Assembly (NCBI GenBank): GCA_964498585.1
Contig: CAZCHH010000003.1
Span: 9,333-73,332, forward strand
Source of the DNA: an uncultured Hyphomicrobiales bacterium
GTDB taxonomy: Bacteria > Bacteroidota > Ignavibacteria > Kapaibacteriales > UBA2268
DNA: 64,000 nucleotides
Reading direction: 5' to 3'
Made by a program: the position numbers and the translations under genes. The stretch's first letter is position 1. Each line of letters starts with the position of its first letter. Positions 535 through 54,298 of this stretch are shown here, one piece after another. Below the pieces are notes generated by a model. That model searched no databases. It was not told the DNA's origin and saw nothing but the letters and a program-made list of their open reading frames with translations.

Positions 535-3120
535 ATGAATAAAAATAAAGAAAATAATGAGGAAAATATGAAACCAGTAAAAAGTTTTATTGTAACTGCC
601 CACTTACCAGAGAATCTATCAAAGCTTAAAGAATTGGCTTATAACTATTGGTGGTGTTGGAATTCTGACGCAAAGGAACTATTTATAAGAACAAACCGTT
701 CGCTTTGGGAAGAAGTAAATCACAATCCAGTGCTATTAATCAATAAATTAAGTCAGGAACAATTAAAAGAGCTTTCTGAACAAGCAGATTACACTAGTTT
801 CATTGATTATATTTATGAAAAATTTCAAAAGTACATAAAAGCAAAAACCTGGTACCAAACCCAAAACAACAGTTCAAAAGGCGTTATTGCTTATTTTTCA
901 ACAGAATATGGAATTAACGAAAGTTTTCCAAATTATTCCGGTGGCTTAGGAATTCTATCCGGCGACCATTTAAAATCTTCAAGTGATTTAGGGCTGCCGC
1001 TTGTAGGAGTTGGGCTTCTATATCAGCAGGGATATTTCAGACAACACTTAACCCAACATGGCTGGCAAACTGAAATATATTCTGATAACGACTTTTTTTC
1101 GATGCCACTAATACTTCAACGTGATTCTTCGGGTAACCCAATTTTAGGAGAAGTCGATTTACCGCTTGGCAGATGCTATTTCCAAATATGGATGCTTAAA
1201 ATAGGAAGAGTCCCTCTTTATCTAATTGATACTAATATTGACCAAAACTCAAATCAAGATTACAAAGACATTACAAATGCGCTTTATGGTGGCGACAGAG
1301 AAACAAGGATTCAGCAGGAAATTGTTCTTGGTATTGGCGGAATGCGAGCTTTAAAGCAACTGGGAATCGTTCCCGAAGTAGTTCATATTAACGAAGGACA
1401 CGCTGCATTTGCTCTTCTTGAAAGAGCACGAATGTACAAAGAAAAATTCAATATTGACTTTCGTTCTGCAAAGCAAATTGTTAAAACAAGTTCAATTTTT
1501 ACTACACATACTCCCGTTCCAGCCGGTAATGAAACATTTAAAGTTGATAAGATTGATACTTATTTTAGTAAATATATAAATGAATTAGGAATTACGCGAG
1601 AAAACTTCATCGAACTTGGACAAACAAATGGTTTCAATAGTAATGAAGATTTTTCTATGACAATCGTAGGACTTAAACTAACTTCATACCACAATGGAGT
1701 TAGTAAACTTCATGGCAATGTTGCAAGAAAAATGTGGAAAAGTATTTGGAAGTGTTTTCCTGATGATGAAGTCCCGATTAAATCTGTTACAAATGGAATC
1801 CATACTATGACCTGGGTTGCACGTGAATTTTCAGAATTATTTGACAGGTATTTAACTCCAAGATGGAGAACTGACTCGGACAATCAGGAATTATGGGAAA
1901 AAATTGAAACAATTCCAGCGGAAGAAATTTGGCGTGAAAAACAAAGACGGCGTATTCGCTTGGTGCTTTTTGCACGTCAATACCTTCAAAGCAAACAAAA
2001 GCAATTTTTAGTGCCAGAACAAATTTCTCAAATTAATAATTATTTAGACCCTGAAGCTCTTACTATTGGATTTGCACGCCGTTTTGCTACATACAAACGT
2101 GCAATGCTGCTTTTCAAGGATATGGACCGGCTGTATAAAATCCTGACTAATCCTGAACGGCCTGTTCAAATTATTCTTGCTGGCAAAGCTCATCCACACG
2201 ATACTCAAGGAAAGGAAGCAATCCAAAGTATAATACACAAAATAAGGACTTATCATTTGGAAAAGCATATTGTTTTCCTTGAAGATTACGATATGGTAAT
2301 TGCACGCTTTATGGTTAAAGGATGCGATGTGTGGCTTAATACACCTATCAGACCTATGGAAGCAAGCGGAACAAGTGGAATGAAAGCTGCGCTTAACGGA
2401 ACATTAAATTTCAGTATTCTCGATGGATGGTGGGACGAAGCTTATAATGGGTCAAACGGTTTTTGCATTGGACGTGGCGAGGAATATACTAATTACGAAG
2501 AACAGGAAATTATCGAATCAGGCGCACTTTATGACGTCCTCGAGCAGCAAATTATTCCTATGTTTTATTATAGAAAACAAGGTAACCGACTCCCCGATAA
2601 ATGGGTTGCTTTTATGAAGAATAGTATTAGTACTATTGCAGGTAATTTTTCTTCTCAAAGAATGGTTAAAGATTATTCTAATGTTTTTTATATTCCAGCT
2701 CTAAAAAATTATCAGAATTTAATTTCAAACAACGGAGCCAAAGCTGTTAAGCTAAAAGAATGGAAAGATACAATCAGGAATCAATGGGATACTGTTGATA
2801 TTATTTCTGTGGAAATGAAAGAAAACGGTGAGTATTACGTTGGGAAGCCCATTAGTGTTCAAGCTATAGTATCTTTGGGAAATTTAACTACTGATGATGT
2901 AGATGTGCAAGTATATTACGGAACTGTTAATTCAAATAATGAAATTGAAAAACCTAATTTCGTCTCTCTCAATCTTAGTAAATCACAGGGAAATATTCAC
3001 AATTATGAAGGAACTTATATTTGTTCTGATACAGGCAAGCAAGGTTTCACAATCAGAGTATTACCAAAACACCCATTAATAGTGGATTCAACTGACTTAT
3101 ATCGTTGCTGCTGGGCGTAG
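535..3120 (+). CDS. glgP: alpha-glucan phosphorylase (glycosyltransferase family 35, GlgP/MalP-like)
   Basis: 861-aa ORF with 'GLGILSGDHLKSSSDLGLPLVGVGLLYQQGYF' and the pyridoxal-phosphate lysine region 'EASGTSGMKAALNGTLNFSILDGWWDE', both typical of alpha-glucan phosphorylases. A hairpin terminator follows. Confidence 0.9.
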   Translation: MNKNKENNEENMKPVKSFIVTAHLPENLSKLKELAYNYWWCWNSDAKELFIRTNRSLWEEVNHNPVLLINKLSQEQLKELSEQADYTSFIDYIYEKFQKYIKAKTWYQTQNNSSKGVIAYFSTEYGINESFPNYSGGLGILSGDHLKSSSDLGLPLVGVGLLYQQGYFRQHLTQHGWQTEIYSDNDFFSMPLILQRDSSGNPILGEVDLPLGRCYFQIWMLKIGRVPLYLIDTNIDQNSNQDYKDITNALYGGDRETRIQQEIVLGIGGMRALKQLGIVPEVVHINEGHAAFALLERARMYKEKFNIDFRSAKQIVKTSSIFTTHTPVPAGNETFKVDKIDTYFSKYINELGITRENFIELGQTNGFNSNEDFSMTIVGLKLTSYHNGVSKLHGNVARKMWKSIWKCFPDDEVPIKSVTNGIHTMTWVAREFSELFDRYLTPRWRTDSDNQELWEKIETIPAEEIWREKQRRRIRLVLFARQYLQSKQKQFLVPEQISQINNYLDPEALTIGFARRFATYKRAMLLFKDMDRLYKILTNPERPVQIILAGKAHPHDTQGKEAIQSIIHKIRTYHLEKHIVFLEDYDMVIARFMVKGCDVWLNTPIRPMEASGTSGMKAALNGTLNFSILDGWWDEAYNGSNGFCIGRGEEYTNYEEQEIIESGALYDVLEQQIIPMFYYRKQGNRLPDKWVAFMKNSISTIAGNFSSQRMVKDYSNVFYIPALKNYQNLISNNGAKAVKLKEWKDTIRNQWDTVDIISVEMKENGEYYVGKPISVQAIVSLGNLTTDDVDVQVYYGTVNSNNEIEKPNFVSLNLSKSQGNIHNYEGTYICSDTGKQGFTIRVLPKHPLIVDSTDLYRCCWA

Positions 3121-3202
3121 GTATTAACGAAGGTCATCTCTGATGAATTTTTATTTCCATTCATACTAACAGCAAACTGTTAGCATTTAATTTCTCATCA
3201 AA

Positions 3203-3241
3203 CTCCTTCCCAAGTGCAACTCGGGAAGGAGAAAATTTTTT
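3203..3241 (+). terminator. rho-independent terminator hairpin (ctccttcccaagtgcaactcgggaaggag plus T-run) after glgP
   Basis: A 10-11 bp inverted repeat followed by 'aaaatttttt', 80 nt after the glgP stop. It belongs to the recurrent 'cccaagtgcaacttggg' hairpin family. Confidence 0.6.
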
Positions 3242-3565
3242 CATTTGTATTAAAATTCTTACCGATTAATTAATTGAGGATTTCAAAATAAGAGAACTTA
3301 TATTAAGAATATAACTGAACTTAAAAATTCCCTTAATTATTCCATTTTTTACCAGTATTTTTTTCTATATTTATATGAATTCTGTTTCTATTGCAATGAT
3401 TCATTCAATTCAAATACTATTTACATCTTTCATTTTATTATTATTATTAATTATTTCTTTAATAATTTTAATATATTTATTCATTTATTTATTTAACGTA
3501 TAAATTTATTTAGTTATCGTATTGATTTTATTTATTAAAATATATATTCTTTAATTAATTTAATT

Positions 3566-44813: not shown

Positions 44814-45054
44814 ATCATTTTCCTCTGCTTGTATTAGTTTGAATAGATTCAGTAACGATATTAGAATTTAATAAAAATTACAGAAAAAACTTAGTTTTTT
44901 ACAGTATTTTAAGCAAACCATTTATTATCAATTACTACTGAATATTTTTTTTTAATTTATGAATAATACAGGTTTATTAATATAACTTCTAAAAATAGTC
45001 ATTCTACACTGCAGGAAAATCAAATATTTTGTTAAAAATCAAAAGACATTTAAA

Positions 45055-45300
45055 GTAAGTATCATTCTGACATACGTCAGAATGACACTTTTAGTTATGT
45101 CATTTCTATTAAATAAAGGTCTCTCTTTATCTGGGGATTACCAATGACATCTTTACTTTAAACTTTACGAAAGTTAAGAAACTTCCGCAAAGTAAGAAGA
45201 TTAATACTTTCGTAAAGTTTCTTAAGTTTGCGAAAGTTTAAAATATGTCATCTCCATTTAAATAAAAGTCTTCTTTTATCTAGGGATTCGAAATGAAAAG
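45055..45300. repeat. composite palindromic repeat cluster (tcattctgacatacgtcagaatgaca perfect palindrome; aaataaaggtctctctttatctggggatt; ctttcgtaaagtt inverted copies)
   Basis: Direct reading. 'ctttacgaaagttaag...cttaactttcgtaaag' forms a long inverted repeat. Confidence 0.75.
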
Positions 45301-45361
45301 ACTGCGAAATAGCATGCTACGAGGCATCAGGAGTTCTGAAATTCTTAAAACTCCTTTATAA

Positions 45362-45757
45362 TTAGTAATCTCTCATAAAGACACTCATTGTTATATTCAG
45401 CCAATTTCCTACCCACTTTTTATCAACAATTTTTGCTAAAATCAATTTTCCCGCATCCATTAACCGTGCTAAAATTTCGTTCTTATCCCGAGGAATATAA
45501 CCAAGTTTTTTCCCTTTTTGAGTTAAAATTAGAATAGCAAATTCATCAAATTGGTTTTCTGGTTCTCTAAGTGTAAGCAAAATCTCGTCTATCAAAAGAT
45601 GTGGCTCAATTTCAGTGAGATTCAAATAGCTTGTTCCTGCAACTTTACATTCAATCAAAAAAATTTCCTGAACAAAAGGCATTGGCAGGCCATCTGTTGT
45701 AAATGAACTTTGAATAATCGCAAGCAGATTCGGGTCAATTACAGCTAAATCCGACAT
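45362..45757 (-). CDS. standalone HIRAN-domain protein
   Basis: 'CKVAGTSYLNL...LTLREPENQFDEFAILILTQKGKKLGYIPRDKNEILARLMDAGKLILAKI...ITMSVFM' follows the HIRAN pattern (VvG..YY...L.R.P.N.yD.NAI.V....G..vGyl.r..A..L...mD...l...g...). It overlaps the upstream gene by 23 nt. Confidence 0.7.
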   Translation of the reverse strand: MSDLAVIDPNLLAIIQSSFTTDGLPMPFVQEIFLIECKVAGTSYLNLTEIEPHLLIDEILLTLREPENQFDEFAILILTQKGKKLGYIPRDKNEILARLMDAGKLILAKIVDKKWVGNWLNITMSVFMRDY

Positions 45758-46571
45758 TATTTTCGTATCCTAAAGTTTTTAGCACATTTTTATAAAAAAT
45801 TATTATTGATTCTAATTGCAGTTTTTCTATTTCTGTTTTTTCTTTTTCACTATTGATTAGGTTTTCATTTTCAATGATATTGATAAGAATATATGGTTTT
45901 TTACTTTTTACATCATTAATTTTTTCAATATAATATTTTATGCTTTTATCTAATTTATTTTTTATTTCTGATAAATCATTTTGAACTTCTGTGATTTTAT
46001 AATCTTCATCATTATCTAAAATTAATTCAATAGCTTTCAGTTCATCAAGATTACAATCTTTATATGCTTCGTAAACCCGCGTCCAAAGTAATTTTTGCAT
46101 TTCATTTAAATTTGGATTGATGTCCGGATGCAGTATTTTGCATAATTTTCTGAACAAACTTTTTAATTGAGTAGAATCAGGTTCGGTTTCTAATAACTTT
46201 ATCCTCTTTTCAGCATTTTTCAAAGCGGTAGCGTAGTTCCTTATTTCTCTTTCCCAATCCAGCGATTCCCGTAGCAAAATATTTTCAACTTCAGTAATAT
46301 TGACCGATTTATTTTGATTTACATAGCTTTGTATCAGTTCAATTTTCCTTTTAAGTTTTTTTGCTTCAAATTCAAGATAAAGTTTTTCAAGCTGATATTT
46401 ACCAATAATAGTAAAATATTGAGCTTCAATATTCTTGCAAACTGTGTTTATCAGCAGTTCATATTCATTAACAAGGATTGATAATTCCTCTTTCAAGTTT
46501 GAAATATCTTGTTTGAGTTTTTTATTCTTTTCATTTTCAATAATTTGCATATTTCGGATATCTTTATTCAA
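45735..46571 (-). CDS. coiled-coil protein with a C-terminal J-domain-like module (HPD motif)
   Basis: 'LKSLFRKLCKILHPDINPNLNEMQKLLWTRVYEAYKDCNLDEL' matches J-domain helices II-III with the invariant HPD. The long N-terminal heptad-rich region suggests coiled coil. Confidence 0.6.
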   Translation of the reverse strand: MNKDIRNMQIIENEKNKKLKQDISNLKEELSILVNEYELLINTVCKNIEAQYFTIIGKYQLEKLYLEFEAKKLKRKIELIQSYVNQNKSVNITEVENILLRESLDWEREIRNYATALKNAEKRIKLLETEPDSTQLKSLFRKLCKILHPDINPNLNEMQKLLWTRVYEAYKDCNLDELKAIELILDNDEDYKITEVQNDLSEIKNKLDKSIKYYIEKINDVKSKKPYILINIIENENLINSEKEKTEIEKLQLESIIIFYKNVLKTLGYENNVGFSCN

Positions 46572-46582
46572 ATGTAAAAAAA

Positions 46583-47092
46583 TTATGCACTTATATTATG
46601 TTGCCAGAATATTTTATCATTAATAAAAACTTTATAACTAATAAATGCGGCTAATGGGCCACCTATCCAAGCATTTGATTCTACAGTAACTTCTCTAATA
46701 TATTCATCATTTTTTTTATCATAAATAATATACATTGCAGATTCAAATAGTGTTCTATAGGAAACCCAGAAATTTTCTCCCCAATAATCTAAATCAAATT
46801 TTTCATTTGGGAATAAATTATTTTCACTATTTTCATTAATTAAGGATTCAGCGTATTTAAATAACTCAATTAATTCACTATCTTTTTTAATTATTATATG
46901 ATTAACAAGAGAAGTCAACGGAATTTGTAATTCATAATCATTATTAGAATATAGCAAAATCATTGTATTTTTCTTTAAAATTTTGGGGTCTATTAAATGT
47001 ATAGTTTTTTTATATTCTGATGAATTTTGGTTATAAGTTGAACAAGAACTTATAAAAATAATAATCAAAAGTAAATAAATTAGATTTTTCAT
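46583..47092 (-). CDS. hypothetical lipoprotein
   Basis: Signal peptide with 'ISSCST'. It lies 12 nt upstream of the J-domain gene. Confidence 0.5.
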   Translation of the reverse strand: MKNLIYLLLIIIFISSCSTYNQNSSEYKKTIHLIDPKILKKNTMILLYSNNDYELQIPLTSLVNHIIIKKDSELIELFKYAESLINENSENNLFPNEKFDLDYWGENFWVSYRTLFESAMYIIYDKKNDEYIREVTVESNAWIGGPLAAFISYKVFINDKIFWQHNISA

Positions 47093-47124
47093 AAAAACCT
47101 CACTTTCTTATAAATTTTATAATA

Positions 47125-47592
47125 CTACTTATTTTGATTTATCATAGATTTAACTAATACTTTTGTATCTATTACAGGAAGAATGAATTTATTTAAGAAA
47201 CTTCCCTGCGTTTTAGCAAAAATTATTCCTCTTGCAGTTGAGTATGTCATTCCTACTAATTCTGTCAATAAATCATCTGGCAAAGTGAAACTTTCATTGT
47301 TCATTTGAATTATTGAAGTTAAATTTAAAATTTTAAAATCACAAACTAATACTAATTCAATTAACTTTATATTTTTATTATTAAAAAGATAATTATTCAC
47401 TACAGTTAGTTGAATTTGAAAAATATTTTGTTCTTTTATGTAAGCATAAGCAAGATTAAATCCTAAATTTAAATTTTTTGAATTAAAATTAGAGGTAATA
47501 TCAAGGGCTGGTTCAATCAAGCTAAAGCGTCTTATTGAAATGTTGTTCAACTTGTAAGAAATTGTAATATTCTCATACTGTTTCGTATTCAT
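47125..47592 (-). CDS. SecB-like chaperone, putative TAC-system chaperone
   Basis: From Met 'MNTKQYENITISYKL...' about 155 aa. Segments 'FQIQLTVVNN', 'IELVLVCDFKIL' and 'MTYSTARGIIFAKTQGSFLNKFILPVID' parallel E. coli SecB ('VVLRVTVTAS', 'FLCEVQQGGIFSI', '[29 protein letters not shown]'). It sits immediately downstream of the HigA-like gene. Confidence 0.55.
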   Translation of the reverse strand: MNTKQYENITISYKLNNISIRRFSLIEPALDITSNFNSKNLNLGFNLAYAYIKEQNIFQIQLTVVNNYLFNNKNIKLIELVLVCDFKILNLTSIIQMNNESFTLPDDLLTELVGMTYSTARGIIFAKTQGSFLNKFILPVIDTKVLVKSMINQNK

Positions 47593-48055
47593 CTGCTTTT
47601 TCAAAATTAATGTTAGTAAAACATAGGTTTGATAAAAAATCATCATCTGAATTTGTTGTATTTTCTAAATCAATATTTTGATAATTAGAAATTCCCGAAT
47701 TTTCACCTAAATTTAATTGTATATTTATATGCTCGTAAAGATTGTCATTAAGATAGCCCAATTCGTCCTGCTTAATAATTTCTTCAATATCAATAAATTT
47801 TACTCTTGGAACTTTATCTATTGCTAATGCTAAATCAATAAATTTAGATAATCTATGGTCAAATTCTCCATTCAAAATCTGAGAGACGTAACCTTTTGTT
47901 ACATTTAGTTTTTGAGCAAATTGAATACGGGTTAGATTATTCTCTTTTAGGTATTCCTTAATAAGTTCGAATAATTCCTGCTGAATTTCACCAATCCAAT
48001 ATTCTCTGCTTTTAAGCAATTCAGCTCTTGTCATTTTCTTTTCTCCTGTATTCAA
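47573..48055 (-). CDS. XRE-family HTH antitoxin (HigA-like) with a ~75-aa acidic C-terminal extension, a candidate chaperone-addiction region
   Basis: HTH 'LTRIQFAQKLNVTKGYVSQILNGE'. It overlaps the toxin gene by 35 nt and has an extended C-terminus 'DDDFLSNLCFTNINFEKADEYETV'. Confidence 0.7.
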   Translation of the reverse strand: MNTGEKKMTRAELLKSREYWIGEIQQELFELIKEYLKENNLTRIQFAQKLNVTKGYVSQILNGEFDHRLSKFIDLALAIDKVPRVKFIDIEEIIKQDELGYLNDNLYEHINIQLNLGENSGISNYQNIDLENTTNSDDDFLSNLCFTNINFEKADEYETV

Positions 48056-48422
48056 GATATTGGTTAATAGTTTTTCTAAAATGATTTAAATCTTTCTTTT
48101 GACTTGTTTTATAACCACCAGTAATAACAATATTTCCGTTTTCTTTATCAATAAAATAATATAATCTTAAATGTTTTGTTTTTATTTCACATTCAGTAAC
48201 AAAAGTTTCCTTGCTATTAAGAATTCTAAATTGTTTTTCCGGCAACCTGCGTCCTGAAGCTAATACGTTCAACTTGTGATAAATTGAGTTTATTTCAGTT
48301 TTATAATTTTGCCTTGCCTTAATCTCAAAAACATCAAATTCACAATTTTCATCTTTTTGCAGTTTGAAAAAAATCAATTTCCCTTTAACAGCTTCAATTC
48401 TTATTAACGCAAATTTACTCAT
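48021..48422 (-). CDS. HigB/Gp49-like (RelE/ParE superfamily) toxin
   Basis: 133 aa with 'FRILNSKETFVTECEIKTKHLRLYYFIDKENGNIVITGGYKTSQKKD' (RelE-fold beta-sheet region). It lies upstream of, and overlaps, the XRE antitoxin gene in the HigB-HigA order. Confidence 0.6.
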   Translation of the reverse strand: MSKFALIRIEAVKGKLIFFKLQKDENCEFDVFEIKARQNYKTEINSIYHKLNVLASGRRLPEKQFRILNSKETFVTECEIKTKHLRLYYFIDKENGNIVITGGYKTSQKKDLNHFRKTINQYLEYRRKENDKS

Positions 48423-48495
48423 TTTAGTTTACTTTTTACTAAACTTTTTTAATTTTTGACAATATTTATCTTTGCAAAAGTTTTAATAATTTCAC

Positions 48496-49431
48496 CTACA
48501 TTTCAATAAACTCTAAGCATTTTTCTTTATCTTCTTCAAGTTGAGTTTTTATTTCTTCTATACCTTTAAACTTTTTCTCTTCCCGAATAAATTTGATGAA
48601 ATTCACCGATACTTTTTTCCCATACAAATCCTCCTCAAAATCGAAAAGATGAACTTCCAAAAGCAATTCACCATCTTCTTCAAATGTAGGCCTTACTCCA
48701 ATATTTGCCATTCCGTAATATGTTTTATTTTGAATTTCAGAAGAAACCAAGTAAACTCCTTTAGCCGGAATTAATTTATACTTATTTGAAAAAGAAAAAT
48801 TGAGTGTAGGAAAACCGATTGTCCTGCCGCGTTTTTGTCCTTTTACAACCACATCTTCAATAAAATAAGAATAGCCAAGCAGTTCGTTTGCAAGTTCAAC
48901 CTGCTGAGATAAAATCAGATTACGGATTTTGGTGCTTGAAATTATTAATTCTTTTTCCAGAAAAGCATCAATTTTTTCAATTTGGAAATTATATTCATTA
49001 GATAACTCAATAAGTAACGATTCGTTACCTTGACGGTTTTTTCCAAAAAGATGGTCGTAACCAATTAAAAGAGTGTGTAATCCGGTTTTTTTTACTAAAT
49101 ATTCAACAATGAAATCTTTTGCATCAGTTTTTGCAAACTCTATTGAAAATGGGATAATTAAAACATTTTCAATCCCTTTACTTTTGAATAATTTCAATCG
49201 CTCATCAATCGTGGTTAAAAGAAAAATCTGCTTTCTGTCCACTTTGTTCAAAACAATTTGCGGATGTGGGTCTATTGTCAAAATCAAATGCCTTAAATTT
49301 TTACGATTAGACATTTCTAATAATTTGTCAATAATCAACTGATGACCGCGATGGACGCCGTCGAATGTACCAACAGTAATTATAGTATTTGGATTATATT
49401 CTATTTCGTTAAAATTGTTGTAAATGTTCAT
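48496..49431 (-). CDS. ribF: bifunctional riboflavin kinase / FMN adenylyltransferase
   Basis: 'VGTFDGVHRGHQ' nucleotidyltransferase motif and a C-terminal riboflavin kinase 'GFPTLN'. Confidence 0.9.
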   Translation of the reverse strand: MNIYNNFNEIEYNPNTIITVGTFDGVHRGHQLIIDKLLEMSNRKNLRHLILTIDPHPQIVLNKVDRKQIFLLTTIDERLKLFKSKGIENVLIIPFSIEFAKTDAKDFIVEYLVKKTGLHTLLIGYDHLFGKNRQGNESLLIELSNEYNFQIEKIDAFLEKELIISSTKIRNLILSQQVELANELLGYSYFIEDVVVKGQKRGRTIGFPTLNFSFSNKYKLIPAKGVYLVSSEIQNKTYYGMANIGVRPTFEEDGELLLEVHLFDFEEDLYGKKVSVNFIKFIREEKKFKGIEEIKTQLEEDKEKCLEFIEM

Positions 49432-52627: not shown

Positions 52628-52795
52628 TTTATAATTGTTAATTGTTAATTGTTAATTATTAATGGTTTATGGTTTATAGTTTATTGTTTATAGTTTATAT
52701 TGTAATTTAGTCATTAGTTATTGGTCATTTGTCATTAGTATTGTTTTCAAATTATCACTTATAATTAATAATTAATAATTAATAATTAATAATTA
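52628..52795. repeat. block of short tandem repeats: (TTAATTG)x4, (GTTTATR)x5, (GTCATTWGT)x3, (ATAATTA)x5 ending at the methyltransferase stop codon
   Basis: Direct reading of 'ttaattgttaattgttaattattaatggtttatggtttatagtttattgtttatagtttata...ataattaataattaataattaataattaataatta'. Confidence 0.85.
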
Positions 52796-54298
52796 TTTTA
52801 TCAGTAACTCAACATTTTCATATTTTCTTCCATTGACTGCTTTTTTAAATGTAGTATTGGTTACTCCGCCGGGTAAATGAACGTTTTTTCCCTGCAATAA
52901 TTGTTCAATCGTTAAGATTTGAATTTTATCTATTTTATATCCCATGAAATGACCCTGCTGCTTTGCTTTCTGAAGCATACCATCAGTTAAAAATTCTTCA
53001 AAGCAAACAAAGACAGCTAAATCTGCTTTTTTTCTTGCTGCAACTTCAATTATATAAGCAATATCACTAATTTTTACATTTCCGCTTTTAACTTCAATAA
53101 TTCCAATTCCTTTTTCCTTGTCATTTTTATTAAAAGTAAAATAACCATCGAAACCACTATCTGACGTCTTTTTTTCGTTAGAAACGCCACCGATAAGAAC
53201 TTCAATAACCCAATCCTGAAACTTAAAACGACCTTTCTTAGTTGACTGGGCAAGCTGGTATGCTGAAGCAATATCCTTTGGATAGCCATTGATTTCTATT
53301 TCAGTCAATAATGTTTTCTTGCTGTTTTCGTCAAGTGGATTAGTTAATCTATCTAAAATAAGTTTTATTGCAAGATGTGAAATGTCCACACCGAGCCAGT
53401 TCCGATTAAGTTTTTCGGCAACTGCAATAGTGGTTCCGCAACCACAGAAGAAATCAGCAACGACATCACCTTCATTGGTGCTCGCTTTGATAATACGTTC
53501 AAGGAGTGATTCAGGTTTCTGAGTAGGATATCCGAGACGTTCAATAGCAGATGGAGCTATTGGTTGAATTTGCCACCAATCATCGGGATGCTTTCCTAAA
53601 GAATGAAGTGTTTGCATTCCAAAATCACCGGATTTCCTTTTATTTCCAATATAATATTTGAAGCGTTCTATTGTTGCTGGTGCATATTCATCTCTAATAG
53701 AATCTAAATTAAACAAATAATTATAATTTTTAGAATATCGTAAAATAGTATCATGCCTACGTCCAAAATCTTTTTTAGGATATCCAGCACCTCTGTAGCA
53801 CCACACAATTTCATTCCTAAAATTCTTTTTTCCAAACAGATAATCGCAAACTAGCTTCAAATAATGGCTCATTGTCGGGTCGCAGTGCAAATAGAAACTT
53901 CCGGTATCTGTAAGCAACGATTTCATATAATAAACTCTATGAGCCATAGTAGTTAAATAAGCTGCTGCACTATGGTCTGTAATTTCAACGAGTTTTAAAA
54001 AATTGTATAAGTCCAATTGTTTATGCTCTAAAAGTTCATTCATAGAATCAATGTATTTAACATTGCTCCAAGTATCTGAGAATGCTTCTTTTTGCGCCTT
54101 TGTATCGCTCATATCTATGTCTTCAAAAAGAACATTATAATTTCTTTTTGAGTTAAATGGCGGGTCTATATAAATCAAATCAATAAAACCCTCTGGATGC
54201 TTAAAAGAAAGTTCTTTTAAAACATCAAGGCAATCTCCGAAGTATAGTTGTTTCATAATTAAGCTTTTATTTTTTCCGATTGTGGTTTGTATTGTCAT
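52793..54298 (-). CDS. beta-class DNA N6-adenine/N4-cytosine methyltransferase with a C-terminal PD-(D/E)xK-like domain; no partner endonuclease gene is adjacent
   Basis: Motif IV 'LIYIDPPFNS' near the N-terminus and motif I 'VVADFFCGCGTTIAVAE' later (beta order). The C-terminal ~150 aa contains 'GFDGYF...IGIIEVKSG', a D...E.K arrangement. Confidence 0.8.
   Translation of the reverse strand: MTIQTTIGKNKSLIMKQLYFGDCLDVLKELSFKHPEGFIDLIYIDPPFNSKRNYNVLFEDIDMSDTKAQKEAFSDTWSNVKYIDSMNELLEHKQLDLYNFLKLVEITDHSAAAYLTTMAHRVYYMKSLLTDTGSFYLHCDPTMSHYLKLVCDYLFGKKNFRNEIVWCYRGAGYPKKDFGRRHDTILRYSKNYNYLFNLDSIRDEYAPATIERFKYYIGNKRKSGDFGMQTLHSLGKHPDDWWQIQPIAPSAIERLGYPTQKPESLLERIIKASTNEGDVVADFFCGCGTTIAVAEKLNRNWLGVDISHLAIKLILDRLTNPLDENSKKTLLTEIEINGYPKDIASAYQLAQSTKKGRFKFQDWVIEVLIGGVSNEKKTSDSGFDGYFTFNKNDKEKGIGIIEVKSGNVKISDIAYIIEVAARKKADLAVFVCFEEFLTDGMLQKAKQQGHFMGYKIDKIQILTIEQLLQGKNVHLPGGVTNTTFKKAVNGRKYENVELLIK

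Follow-up and report, generated by a model that had tools for sequence, protein, structure and literature searches.

Toxin–antitoxin–chaperone (TAC) systems have been studied in Mycobacterium and Escherichia coli, where a SecB-like chaperone keeps the antitoxin stable and, in those systems that defend against phages, also detects structural proteins of the phage. The C-terminal chaperone-addiction (ChAD) segment of such antitoxins leaves them prone to aggregation and proteolysis unless they are bound by the dedicated chaperone, SecB-TA (PMC5105189, PMC6377645). Three E. coli systems of this kind, HigBAC, MqsRAC and CmdTAC, are triggered when structural proteins of a phage take the place of the antitoxin on the chaperone, and abortive infection follows (PMC9519451, PMC11618068, bioRxiv 2024.02.24.581848). 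Here we describe a locus with this architecture in a stretch of 64,000 nucleotides, referred to as the window, from an uncultured bacterium of the Ignavibacteria (contig CAZCHH010000003.1, positions 9,333 to 73,332). At positions 47125-48422 of the window, on the minus strand, three successive open reading frames (ORFs) encode a toxin, an antitoxin and a third protein, for which a SecB fold is predicted. The locus is a sequence-divergent member of the known TAC class and not new in kind, and we consider it likely to be a true TAC module that operates through chaperone addiction. The TAC reading had been put forward in a note made from the DNA sequence (the original prediction). It is supported by all the computational evidence, namely the fold and the link between antitoxin tail and chaperone, and only in details, i.e. 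the expected Pfam family, the supposed rarity and the length of the tail, did the original prediction go wrong.

The three genes are tightly spaced in the order toxin, antitoxin, chaperone, as had been predicted. With the likelier start codons (Table 1) the toxin and antitoxin genes overlap by 14 nt and the antitoxin and third genes by 20 nt, the usual signature of translational coupling. For the antitoxin, the internal ATG is preferred because a GGAG lies 9 nt upstream of it and because the resulting length agrees with that of the homologues in databases. The third protein is called with 155 aa in public data, where an entry of 100% identity (P0001) is present on seven contigs. The same order of genes is kept in loci L001-L007 and L032-L037 and in many metagenome loci. 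Since it recurs amid unrelated flanks (L001-L004, 19 of 20 reference-genome loci and dozens of metagenome loci), the arrangement is not a product of chance. In orthologous triads the chaperone gene directly follows the antitoxin gene, the two mostly overlapping by 4 nt or lying a few nucleotides apart (L001, L005-L007, L032-L037).

The assignment of the third protein is based on structure prediction. Its AlphaFold2 (AF2) model (predicted local distance difference test, pLDDT, 84.9; predicted template modelling score, pTM, 0.82) has the topology of SecB. In a Foldseek search against the PDB, the top 17 matches were all SecB or Rv1957, the chaperone of the M. tuberculosis TAC system, and these were the sole strong matches. 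The model thus shows a predicted SecB fold for the third protein, the hit on which the original prediction had staked its reading. Fold and order of secondary-structure elements are alike in the model and in canonical SecB, and the kinship is visible at this level only, together with a collinear but non-significant hhalign alignment of the family with the single E. coli SecB sequence over the full length (E 0.035). In this alignment the invariant block of the family, YSTARGII..K.QG..L..FILPVID, falls on the FPYARE...G.FP...L.PVNF block of SecB. The most conserved block of the family lies near the C-terminus at residues 115-142 of the 155-aa protein (MTYSTARGIIFAKTQGSFLNKFILPVID), and within it Y117, S118, R121, G122, I123, F125, Q129, G130, L133 and P139 are invariant. 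This is the segment quoted in the original prediction, and the parallel to E. coli SecB drawn there is reproduced in so far as hhalign aligns the same blocks, with a weak score.

The strongest new support comes from the comparison of orthologous loci. Loci encoding orthologues of the antitoxin N-terminal domain were gathered from genome and metagenome collections and scored with hidden Markov models for the toxin, the antitoxin N-terminal domain and the chaperone; after removal of antitoxins more than 80% identical to one another, 57 non-redundant loci remained. Antitoxin tails measured 26-70 aa (median 54 aa) in the 39 loci bearing a chaperone gene, compared with a median of 27.5 aa in the 18 loci without it. 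Tail length was associated with chaperone presence (Mann-Whitney p 3.5e-6), also when a threshold of 33 aa was applied across the 57 loci (Fisher p 2.9e-7), in tests that correct for phylogeny incompletely. Nearest neighbours differing in chaperone presence formed 18 non-overlapping pairs, and in 16 of them the chaperone-bearing member had the longer tail (p 6.6e-4). A neighbour-joining tree needs at least 16 gains or losses. Antitoxins followed directly by a SecB-like gene have 130-169 aa. Three independent short orthologues (102, 111 and 117 aa) are encoded in two-gene modules (L025-L031). In these modules the toxin is orthologous too (E 1e-40 to 1e-59), and a SecB-like gene is lacking downstream. 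Tail and chaperone gene are thus coupled among the orthologues.

Tail sequences follow the same pattern, as three tail classes co-vary with three chaperone clades. The class of the window combines the tail motifs A and B (Table 1). In a second class, from Prolixibacteraceae, the tail is different and the chaperone measures 146 aa. In the third class (L042, L048, L053, L054, L061, L062, L074 and L076) the tail, DIERSKNIL..SGYL.S.KP, is always paired with a divergent third gene, which is located at about 2950-3420 of these loci and carries SGLSICITNLRSYIANQTSYFPWGSFSF. This divergent clade is tied to the main family by profile-profile comparison only (hhalign probability 93.9%, E 1.5e-7). The co-variation of tail classes and chaperone clades mirrors the specificity between ChAD and SecB-TA that has been shown experimentally for other TAC systems (PMC5105189).

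The antitoxin combines a helix-turn-helix (HTH) domain of the XRE type with this tail. The domain matches Pfam HTH_3 significantly (E 5.8e-8), and Q18, A40, V45, Y49, S51, Q52, L54, N55, L68 and P76 are invariant in alignments of it. The match to the HigA model TIGR02607 (18.2 bits, E 0.0016) is below the curated cut-off of 47.7 bits, and the antitoxin profile retrieved from the PDB sequences generic XRE repressors only and no HigA; the term "HigA-like" describes the architecture of the protein, not its family membership. The 62 residues past the conserved domain of ~91 aa are acidic, rich in Asn, of low complexity and variable among homologues (12 D/E versus 1 K; 4 Y and 3 F). The XRE domain and the acidic and aromatic extension were correctly predicted, except that the window antitoxin is longer than its two-gene orthologues of 102-117 aa by about 36-51 aa and not by about 75 aa.

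We infer that this tail acts as a ChAD. Motif A follows the pattern ELGxLHxxxYExINIxLxhxxNxGI[ST], which in the tail alignment is common to the antitoxins with a window-type partner chaperone, and is a candidate for the primary chaperone-binding site. Motif B recurs in the same alignment as h-x-[FY]-E-[KT] (NINFEK, NINYEK, FKYETK, IHYETS, IKYETA). By analogy only, the two motifs may be likened to the two-motif ChAD of M. tuberculosis (PMC6377645). Because the ChADs published so far are not similar among themselves (PMC5105189), aligning the tail to known ChADs, as had been suggested, is uninformative.

We regard the toxin as a Gp49-like outlier within the RelE/ParE superfamily. It matches the RelE/ParE model TIGR02683 (E 7e-4) and phrog_3445, annotated as "toxin" (E 1.7e-4). 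Eight of 11 toxin homologues match Gp49 at E 0.1 or better, the best at 6.7e-5, and the toxin profile found the RelE-type toxin HP0892 among the PDB sequences (E 0.016). In the AF2 model (pLDDT 91.3) an additional N-terminal β-hairpin and a long C-terminal helix lie beside the RelE core, and RelE and HigB toxins lead the Foldseek matches (1wmi with a probability of 0.99 and a TM score of 0.62 on the target). These concordant but weak results suggest that the protein belongs to a type II toxin–antitoxin (TA) toxin family with a RelE/ParE fold. HigB1, the toxin of the TAC prototype from M. tuberculosis, is itself assigned to the Gp49 family PF05973 (PMC11980606).

We propose the following working model. 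The three genes, which overlap, would be co-transcribed and translationally coupled. The 133-aa toxin would act as a translation-dependent mRNA endonuclease, as its family and the tentatively assigned RelE/Gp49 fold suggest. The 153-aa antitoxin would neutralise the toxin and, by means of its XRE HTH domain, repress the operon. The antitoxin tail of 62 aa, acidic and seemingly disordered, would serve as the addiction segment, either destabilising the antitoxin or rendering it prone to aggregation, since orthologous two-gene modules do without both the tail and the third gene. The SecB-fold protein, presumably a tetramer, would bind the tail, probably at motif A and perhaps at motif B, and thereby keep the antitoxin functional. 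Titration of the chaperone by a phage structural protein or by other unfolded clients could then free the toxin and abort the infection, as in HigBAC, MqsRAC and CmdTAC. This last step agrees with the place of the wider family among the PADLOC defence candidates (see below).

Compared with the prototype from M. tuberculosis, HigB1-HigA1-SecB-TA (Rv1955-Rv1956-Rv1957), the module differs as follows. The third protein has no detectable sequence similarity to Rv1957. The window toxin has none to any HigB or Gp49-family toxin among the PDB sequences. The tail, acidic and rich in Asn, has Y/F/I/L motifs and is not Trp/Arg-based, and the host belongs to the Fibrobacteres–Chlorobi–Bacteroidetes (FCB) group. 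With the anti-phage systems HigBAC, MqsRAC and CmdTAC of E. coli the module shares the tricistronic order of toxin, antitoxin and SecB-like protein, and activation by a phage structural protein that titrates the chaperone, followed by degradation of the antitoxin, is likely to be a shared logic. Some relatives of the module are also found in a context resembling defence islands, and the family is a PADLOC defence candidate. The toxin differs from MqsR and from the ADP-ribosyltransferase CmdT, and the window module is located between housekeeping genes.

The family of the third protein is large. When 1.84 billion cluster representatives were searched with its profile, 3,259 proteins were found at E<=1e-3 and 1,020 at E<=1e-10, the 3,259 representatives being counted at 50% clustering. 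Among the genome loci, which were recovered with the narrower alignment A1 and are therefore biased towards close relatives, 18 of 20 were from Bacteroidota or Ignavibacteria, including Pedobacter, Mucilaginibacter, Mariniphaga, Chitinophagaceae and Cytophagaceae. The original prediction that such modules are rare outside Actinobacteria and Proteobacteria is thus untrue for this family. In 19 of the 20 reference-genome loci found with the chaperone profile an HTH gene is directly upstream, and wherever the upstream ORFs were displayed, a toxin-like gene with the motif LRLYC...NGG.KT was found upstream as well. One locus (L014:2860-3345) contains a solitary SecB-fold member with no toxin or HTH gene upstream and a 275-aa gene as neighbour; not every family member is therefore linked to TA genes. 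A homologous triad on the metagenome contig L001 (577-7721) lies within a stretch resembling a defence island, with a HigB-like gene, an HTH-Peptidase_M78 gene and REase-ARP/PDDEXK genes, and with the HsdR gene of a type I restriction–modification (R-M) system directly downstream of the triad.

The third protein also matches the PADLOC model PDC-M64C (E 9.5e-15). The 145 PDC systems are candidates put forward through "guilt-by-embedding" within loci of BREX, DISARM and type I R-M (bioRxiv 2024.01.29.577857), with which the position of the L001 triad next to HsdR is consistent. The related Bacteroidota triads tested have the same order of toxin-like, HTH and SecB-like genes and match PDC-M64 A, B and C strongly (E 1e-15 to 1e-52). 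As the toxin and antitoxin of the window match A and B at marginal scores, the window module appears to be a sister branch of PDC-M64, which has the same chaperone family with a different Gp49/XRE pair. Phage defence may be the biological role of the module, with about an even chance of being the right one. We found no paper that names PDC-M64 or ties it to SecB or TAC. In a limited literature set, Bacteroidetes go unmentioned in the TAC papers Sala 2013 (PMC3581621), Bordes 2016 and Mets 2024; in Sala 2013 a PSI-BLAST search with Rv1957 reached seven phyla (PMC3581621). Within this set we found no published description of TAC-like systems in this bacterial group.

Several results weigh against the TAC reading, in addition to the incomplete phylogenetic correction mentioned above. 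Searches of Pfam (E up to 1), NCBIfam and PHROGs with the third protein gave nothing meaningful; the SecB family PF02556, which the original prediction had expected, was not among the matches, and none of 74 diverse relatives matched it in a Pfam scan at E up to 0.01. Neither phmmer nor two profile searches against the PDB sequences returned SecB for the third protein, and their matches, among them MDA5, RNase III and, at E 5.4, an XRE protein, are due to chance. The CmdC model of PADLOC, PD-T4-9_C, which represents a known TAC chaperone, is matched by E. coli SecB and not by the third protein. The marginal matches of the window proteins to PDC-M64 A and B have E 0.014 for the toxin and 1e-3 for the antitoxin. 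Against Pfam Gp49 (PF05973) the toxin scores 18.3 bits (E 0.0025), below the gathering score of 23.9 bits; the predicted 133-aa Gp49/HigB-like toxin of the RelE fold is backed by consistent weak matches and by the leading fold matches. The Foldseek E-values of the toxin are 0.07 or weaker because only about 75 of its 133 residues form the RelE core, and were taken as concordant support only. The coupling of tail and chaperone is also not without exceptions: in five antitoxins a long tail, mostly basic or rich in Pro, occurs in the absence of a chaperone gene, and two antitoxins accompanied by a chaperone gene have tails of 26 aa.

Two further observations concern the same proteins. The only PDB matches of the family profile were the 232-233-aa chains named "Helix-turn-helix XRE family protein" in the multi-chain assemblies 8q86, 8rc5 and 8qe9; the match spans the β-sheet region and is not significant (E about 5). 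In L068, L078, L095 and L113, where no SecB-like gene is found downstream, the antitoxin tails of 35-75 aa are mostly basic, Lys-rich or Pro-rich and may serve another purpose.

Three alternatives to chaperone addiction have to be weighed. The three components could form a module for defence or regulation, with the SecB-fold protein as a sensor, an adaptor or a second regulator acting on the toxin or on DNA, and with the tail in another role such as a degron or a contact to the toxin. The case for the third protein rests on its fold, the broader family is known solely as the candidate PDC-M64 (bioRxiv 2024.01.29.577857), and some orthologues are long-tailed without having the third gene, all of which would suit such a module. 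However, all characterised triads of toxin, antitoxin and SecB-like protein make use of binding between chaperone and antitoxin (PMC5105189, PMC6377645, PMC11618068, bioRxiv 2024.02.24.581848), and the co-occurrence and co-variation of tail and chaperone are what addiction predicts. We therefore consider this alternative improbable.

Still less probable, in our view, is an ordinary two-gene Gp49/XRE pair beside an independent general or secretion-dedicated export chaperone with no control over the antitoxin. The fold of the third protein is that of the export chaperone SecB, the solitary family member in L014 stands without TA genes, and published TAC chaperones can complement E. coli secB (PMC5105189). 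This is opposed by the gene arrangement, since the third gene overlaps the antitoxin stop by 20 nt and an HTH antitoxin precedes the family gene in each of the 39 non-redundant loci that carry a chaperone and in 19 of the 20 genome loci, and by the finding that the presence of the third gene tracks both the length and the sequence class of the antitoxin tail. Unlike canonical SecB, the family fails the Pfam model and is linked to TA genes save for rare solitary copies. Of the acidic patch by which E. coli SecB binds SecA (D20, E24 and E77), two residues may not be conserved: in the low-confidence hhalign alignment, D20 and E24 correspond to R22 and I26 of the third protein. Rv1957 has R32 and A36 at these two positions (PMC6377645). 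A decaying or non-functional remnant, with ORFs intact by chance or only recently inactivated, is hardly credible: the very low GC content (0.20-0.27) does ease long chance ORFs and palindromes, but full-length homologues of all three proteins (40-100% identity) occur on many independent contigs, with conserved cores, preserved start-stop overlaps and confidently predicted folds.

Taken alone, the window provides a solid annotation that is unsurprising in kind. Its wider meaning lies in the family. Canonical SecB has been reported only sporadically in the phyla of Bacteroidota and Ignavibacteria. Through this locus the TAC architecture is seen to reach into Bacteroidota and Ignavibacteria, where its third component comes from a SecB-fold family missed by sequence profiles. 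Since neither the Pfam SecB model nor the PADLOC CmdC model detects this family, standard annotation would miss such modules. We speculate, at about even odds, that the third gene represents a large FCB-centred clade of SecB-fold chaperones (at least 3,000 clusters at 50% identity, with no Pfam model), which otherwise ordinary Gp49/XRE pairs have repeatedly gained and lost together with a matching antitoxin tail, each gain yielding a chaperone-gated, phage-sensing TAC defence. If this is true, it would provide a mechanism for the PADLOC candidate PDC-M64 and extend TAC biology to Bacteroidota and Ignavibacteria. The two-gene modules with short antitoxins and the three-gene modules with tailed antitoxins form natural matched pairs, which together with the three tail classes and their three chaperone clades offer a comparative system for how chaperone addiction is gained, lost and kept specific.

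Table 1 Features of the putative TAC module and its immediate surroundings (positions in the window).
Feature	Position	Strand	Size or start	Remarks
Intergenic region	48423-48495	-	73 nt	Between ribF and toxin gene; presumed promoter/operator
Toxin gene	48021-48422	-	133 aa, ATG start	RelE/ParE superfamily, Gp49/HigB-like
Antitoxin gene, longest ORF	47573-48055	-	160 aa, TTG start	
Antitoxin gene, likelier start	47573-48034	-	153 aa, ATG at 48034	
Antitoxin N-terminal domain	47762-48034	-	Residues 1-91	Helix-turn-helix of the XRE type, conserved throughout the orthologous family
Antitoxin C-terminal extension	47573-47761	-	Residues 92-153 and stop	Putative chaperone-addiction (ChAD-like) tail
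Tail motif A	47687-47761	-	L92-S116	LGYLNDNLYEHINIQLNLGENSGIS; only well-conserved stretch of the tail
Tail motif B	47582-47620	-	F139-E151	FTNINFEKADEYE; semi-conserved, hydrophobic/aromatic-acidic, near the C-terminus
Third gene, longest ORF	47125-47646	-	173 aa, first ATG at 47646	
Third gene, likelier start	47125-47592	-	155 aa, ATG at 47592	SecB-fold putative TA chaperone (SecB-TA-like); without Pfam model, matches PDC-M64C
Lipoprotein-like gene	46583-47092	-	169 aa	Signal peptide with terminal Cys; follows the chaperone gene after 32 nt

The module is located in an islet of low GC content (0.20-0.27 at 45000-48500, versus 0.30-0.38 in the flanks) between housekeeping genes, which are tyrS and mnmA at one end and ribF, truB, rbfA and tgt at the opposite end. 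This setting suggests horizontal acquisition of the TAC module together with its small neighbours. The nearest relatives of the module proteins are found in metagenome-assembled genomes (MAGs) of Ignavibacteria, and a protein with a type IX secretion system (T9SS) sorting domain is encoded nearby in the window; both findings assign the window to the FCB group. A search of 50,697 phage records gave no match to the module, and the plasmid and viral collections gave one match on a 1-Mb replicon of Persicobacter and one on an IMG/VR contig; the phage, plasmid and IMG/VR searches thus provide no evidence that the module is typically borne by phages or plasmids.

The intergenic region upstream of the toxin gene holds short palindromes (TTTGCAAA; AGTTTA-8-TAAACT; AAACTTTT/AAAAGTTT). 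They were rejected as evidence of regulation, since such short AT-rich repeats are expected by chance at ~25% GC. A scan for sigma-70 promoters and terminators, which is ill-suited to the host phylum, gave nothing above shuffled controls. The lipoprotein-like gene downstream of the chaperone gene was likewise rejected as a component of the system. A 171-aa homologue of it follows the triad only in the closest MAG (L005:1214-1729), and the more distant loci are without it; it is probably a neighbour and not part of the module.

Just beyond the TAC module, in the same islet, two overlapping genes occupy 45362-46571 on the minus strand. The product of one, with 278 aa, matches the J domain weakly, an HPD motif included (Pfam DnaJ, E 0.0021; PADLOC PDC-M04B, E 0.004). 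That of the other, with 131 aa, contains a HIRAN domain (PF08797, E 1.8e-15; PADLOC PDC-M03B, E 3e-11). The two genes may form a second small pair of defence candidates. Adjoining rbfA, at 52793-54298 on the minus strand, a 501-aa N6/N4 DNA methyltransferase is encoded (PF01555, E 7e-47). With no obvious restriction partner among the listed ORFs of at least 110 aa, it may be an orphan methylase.

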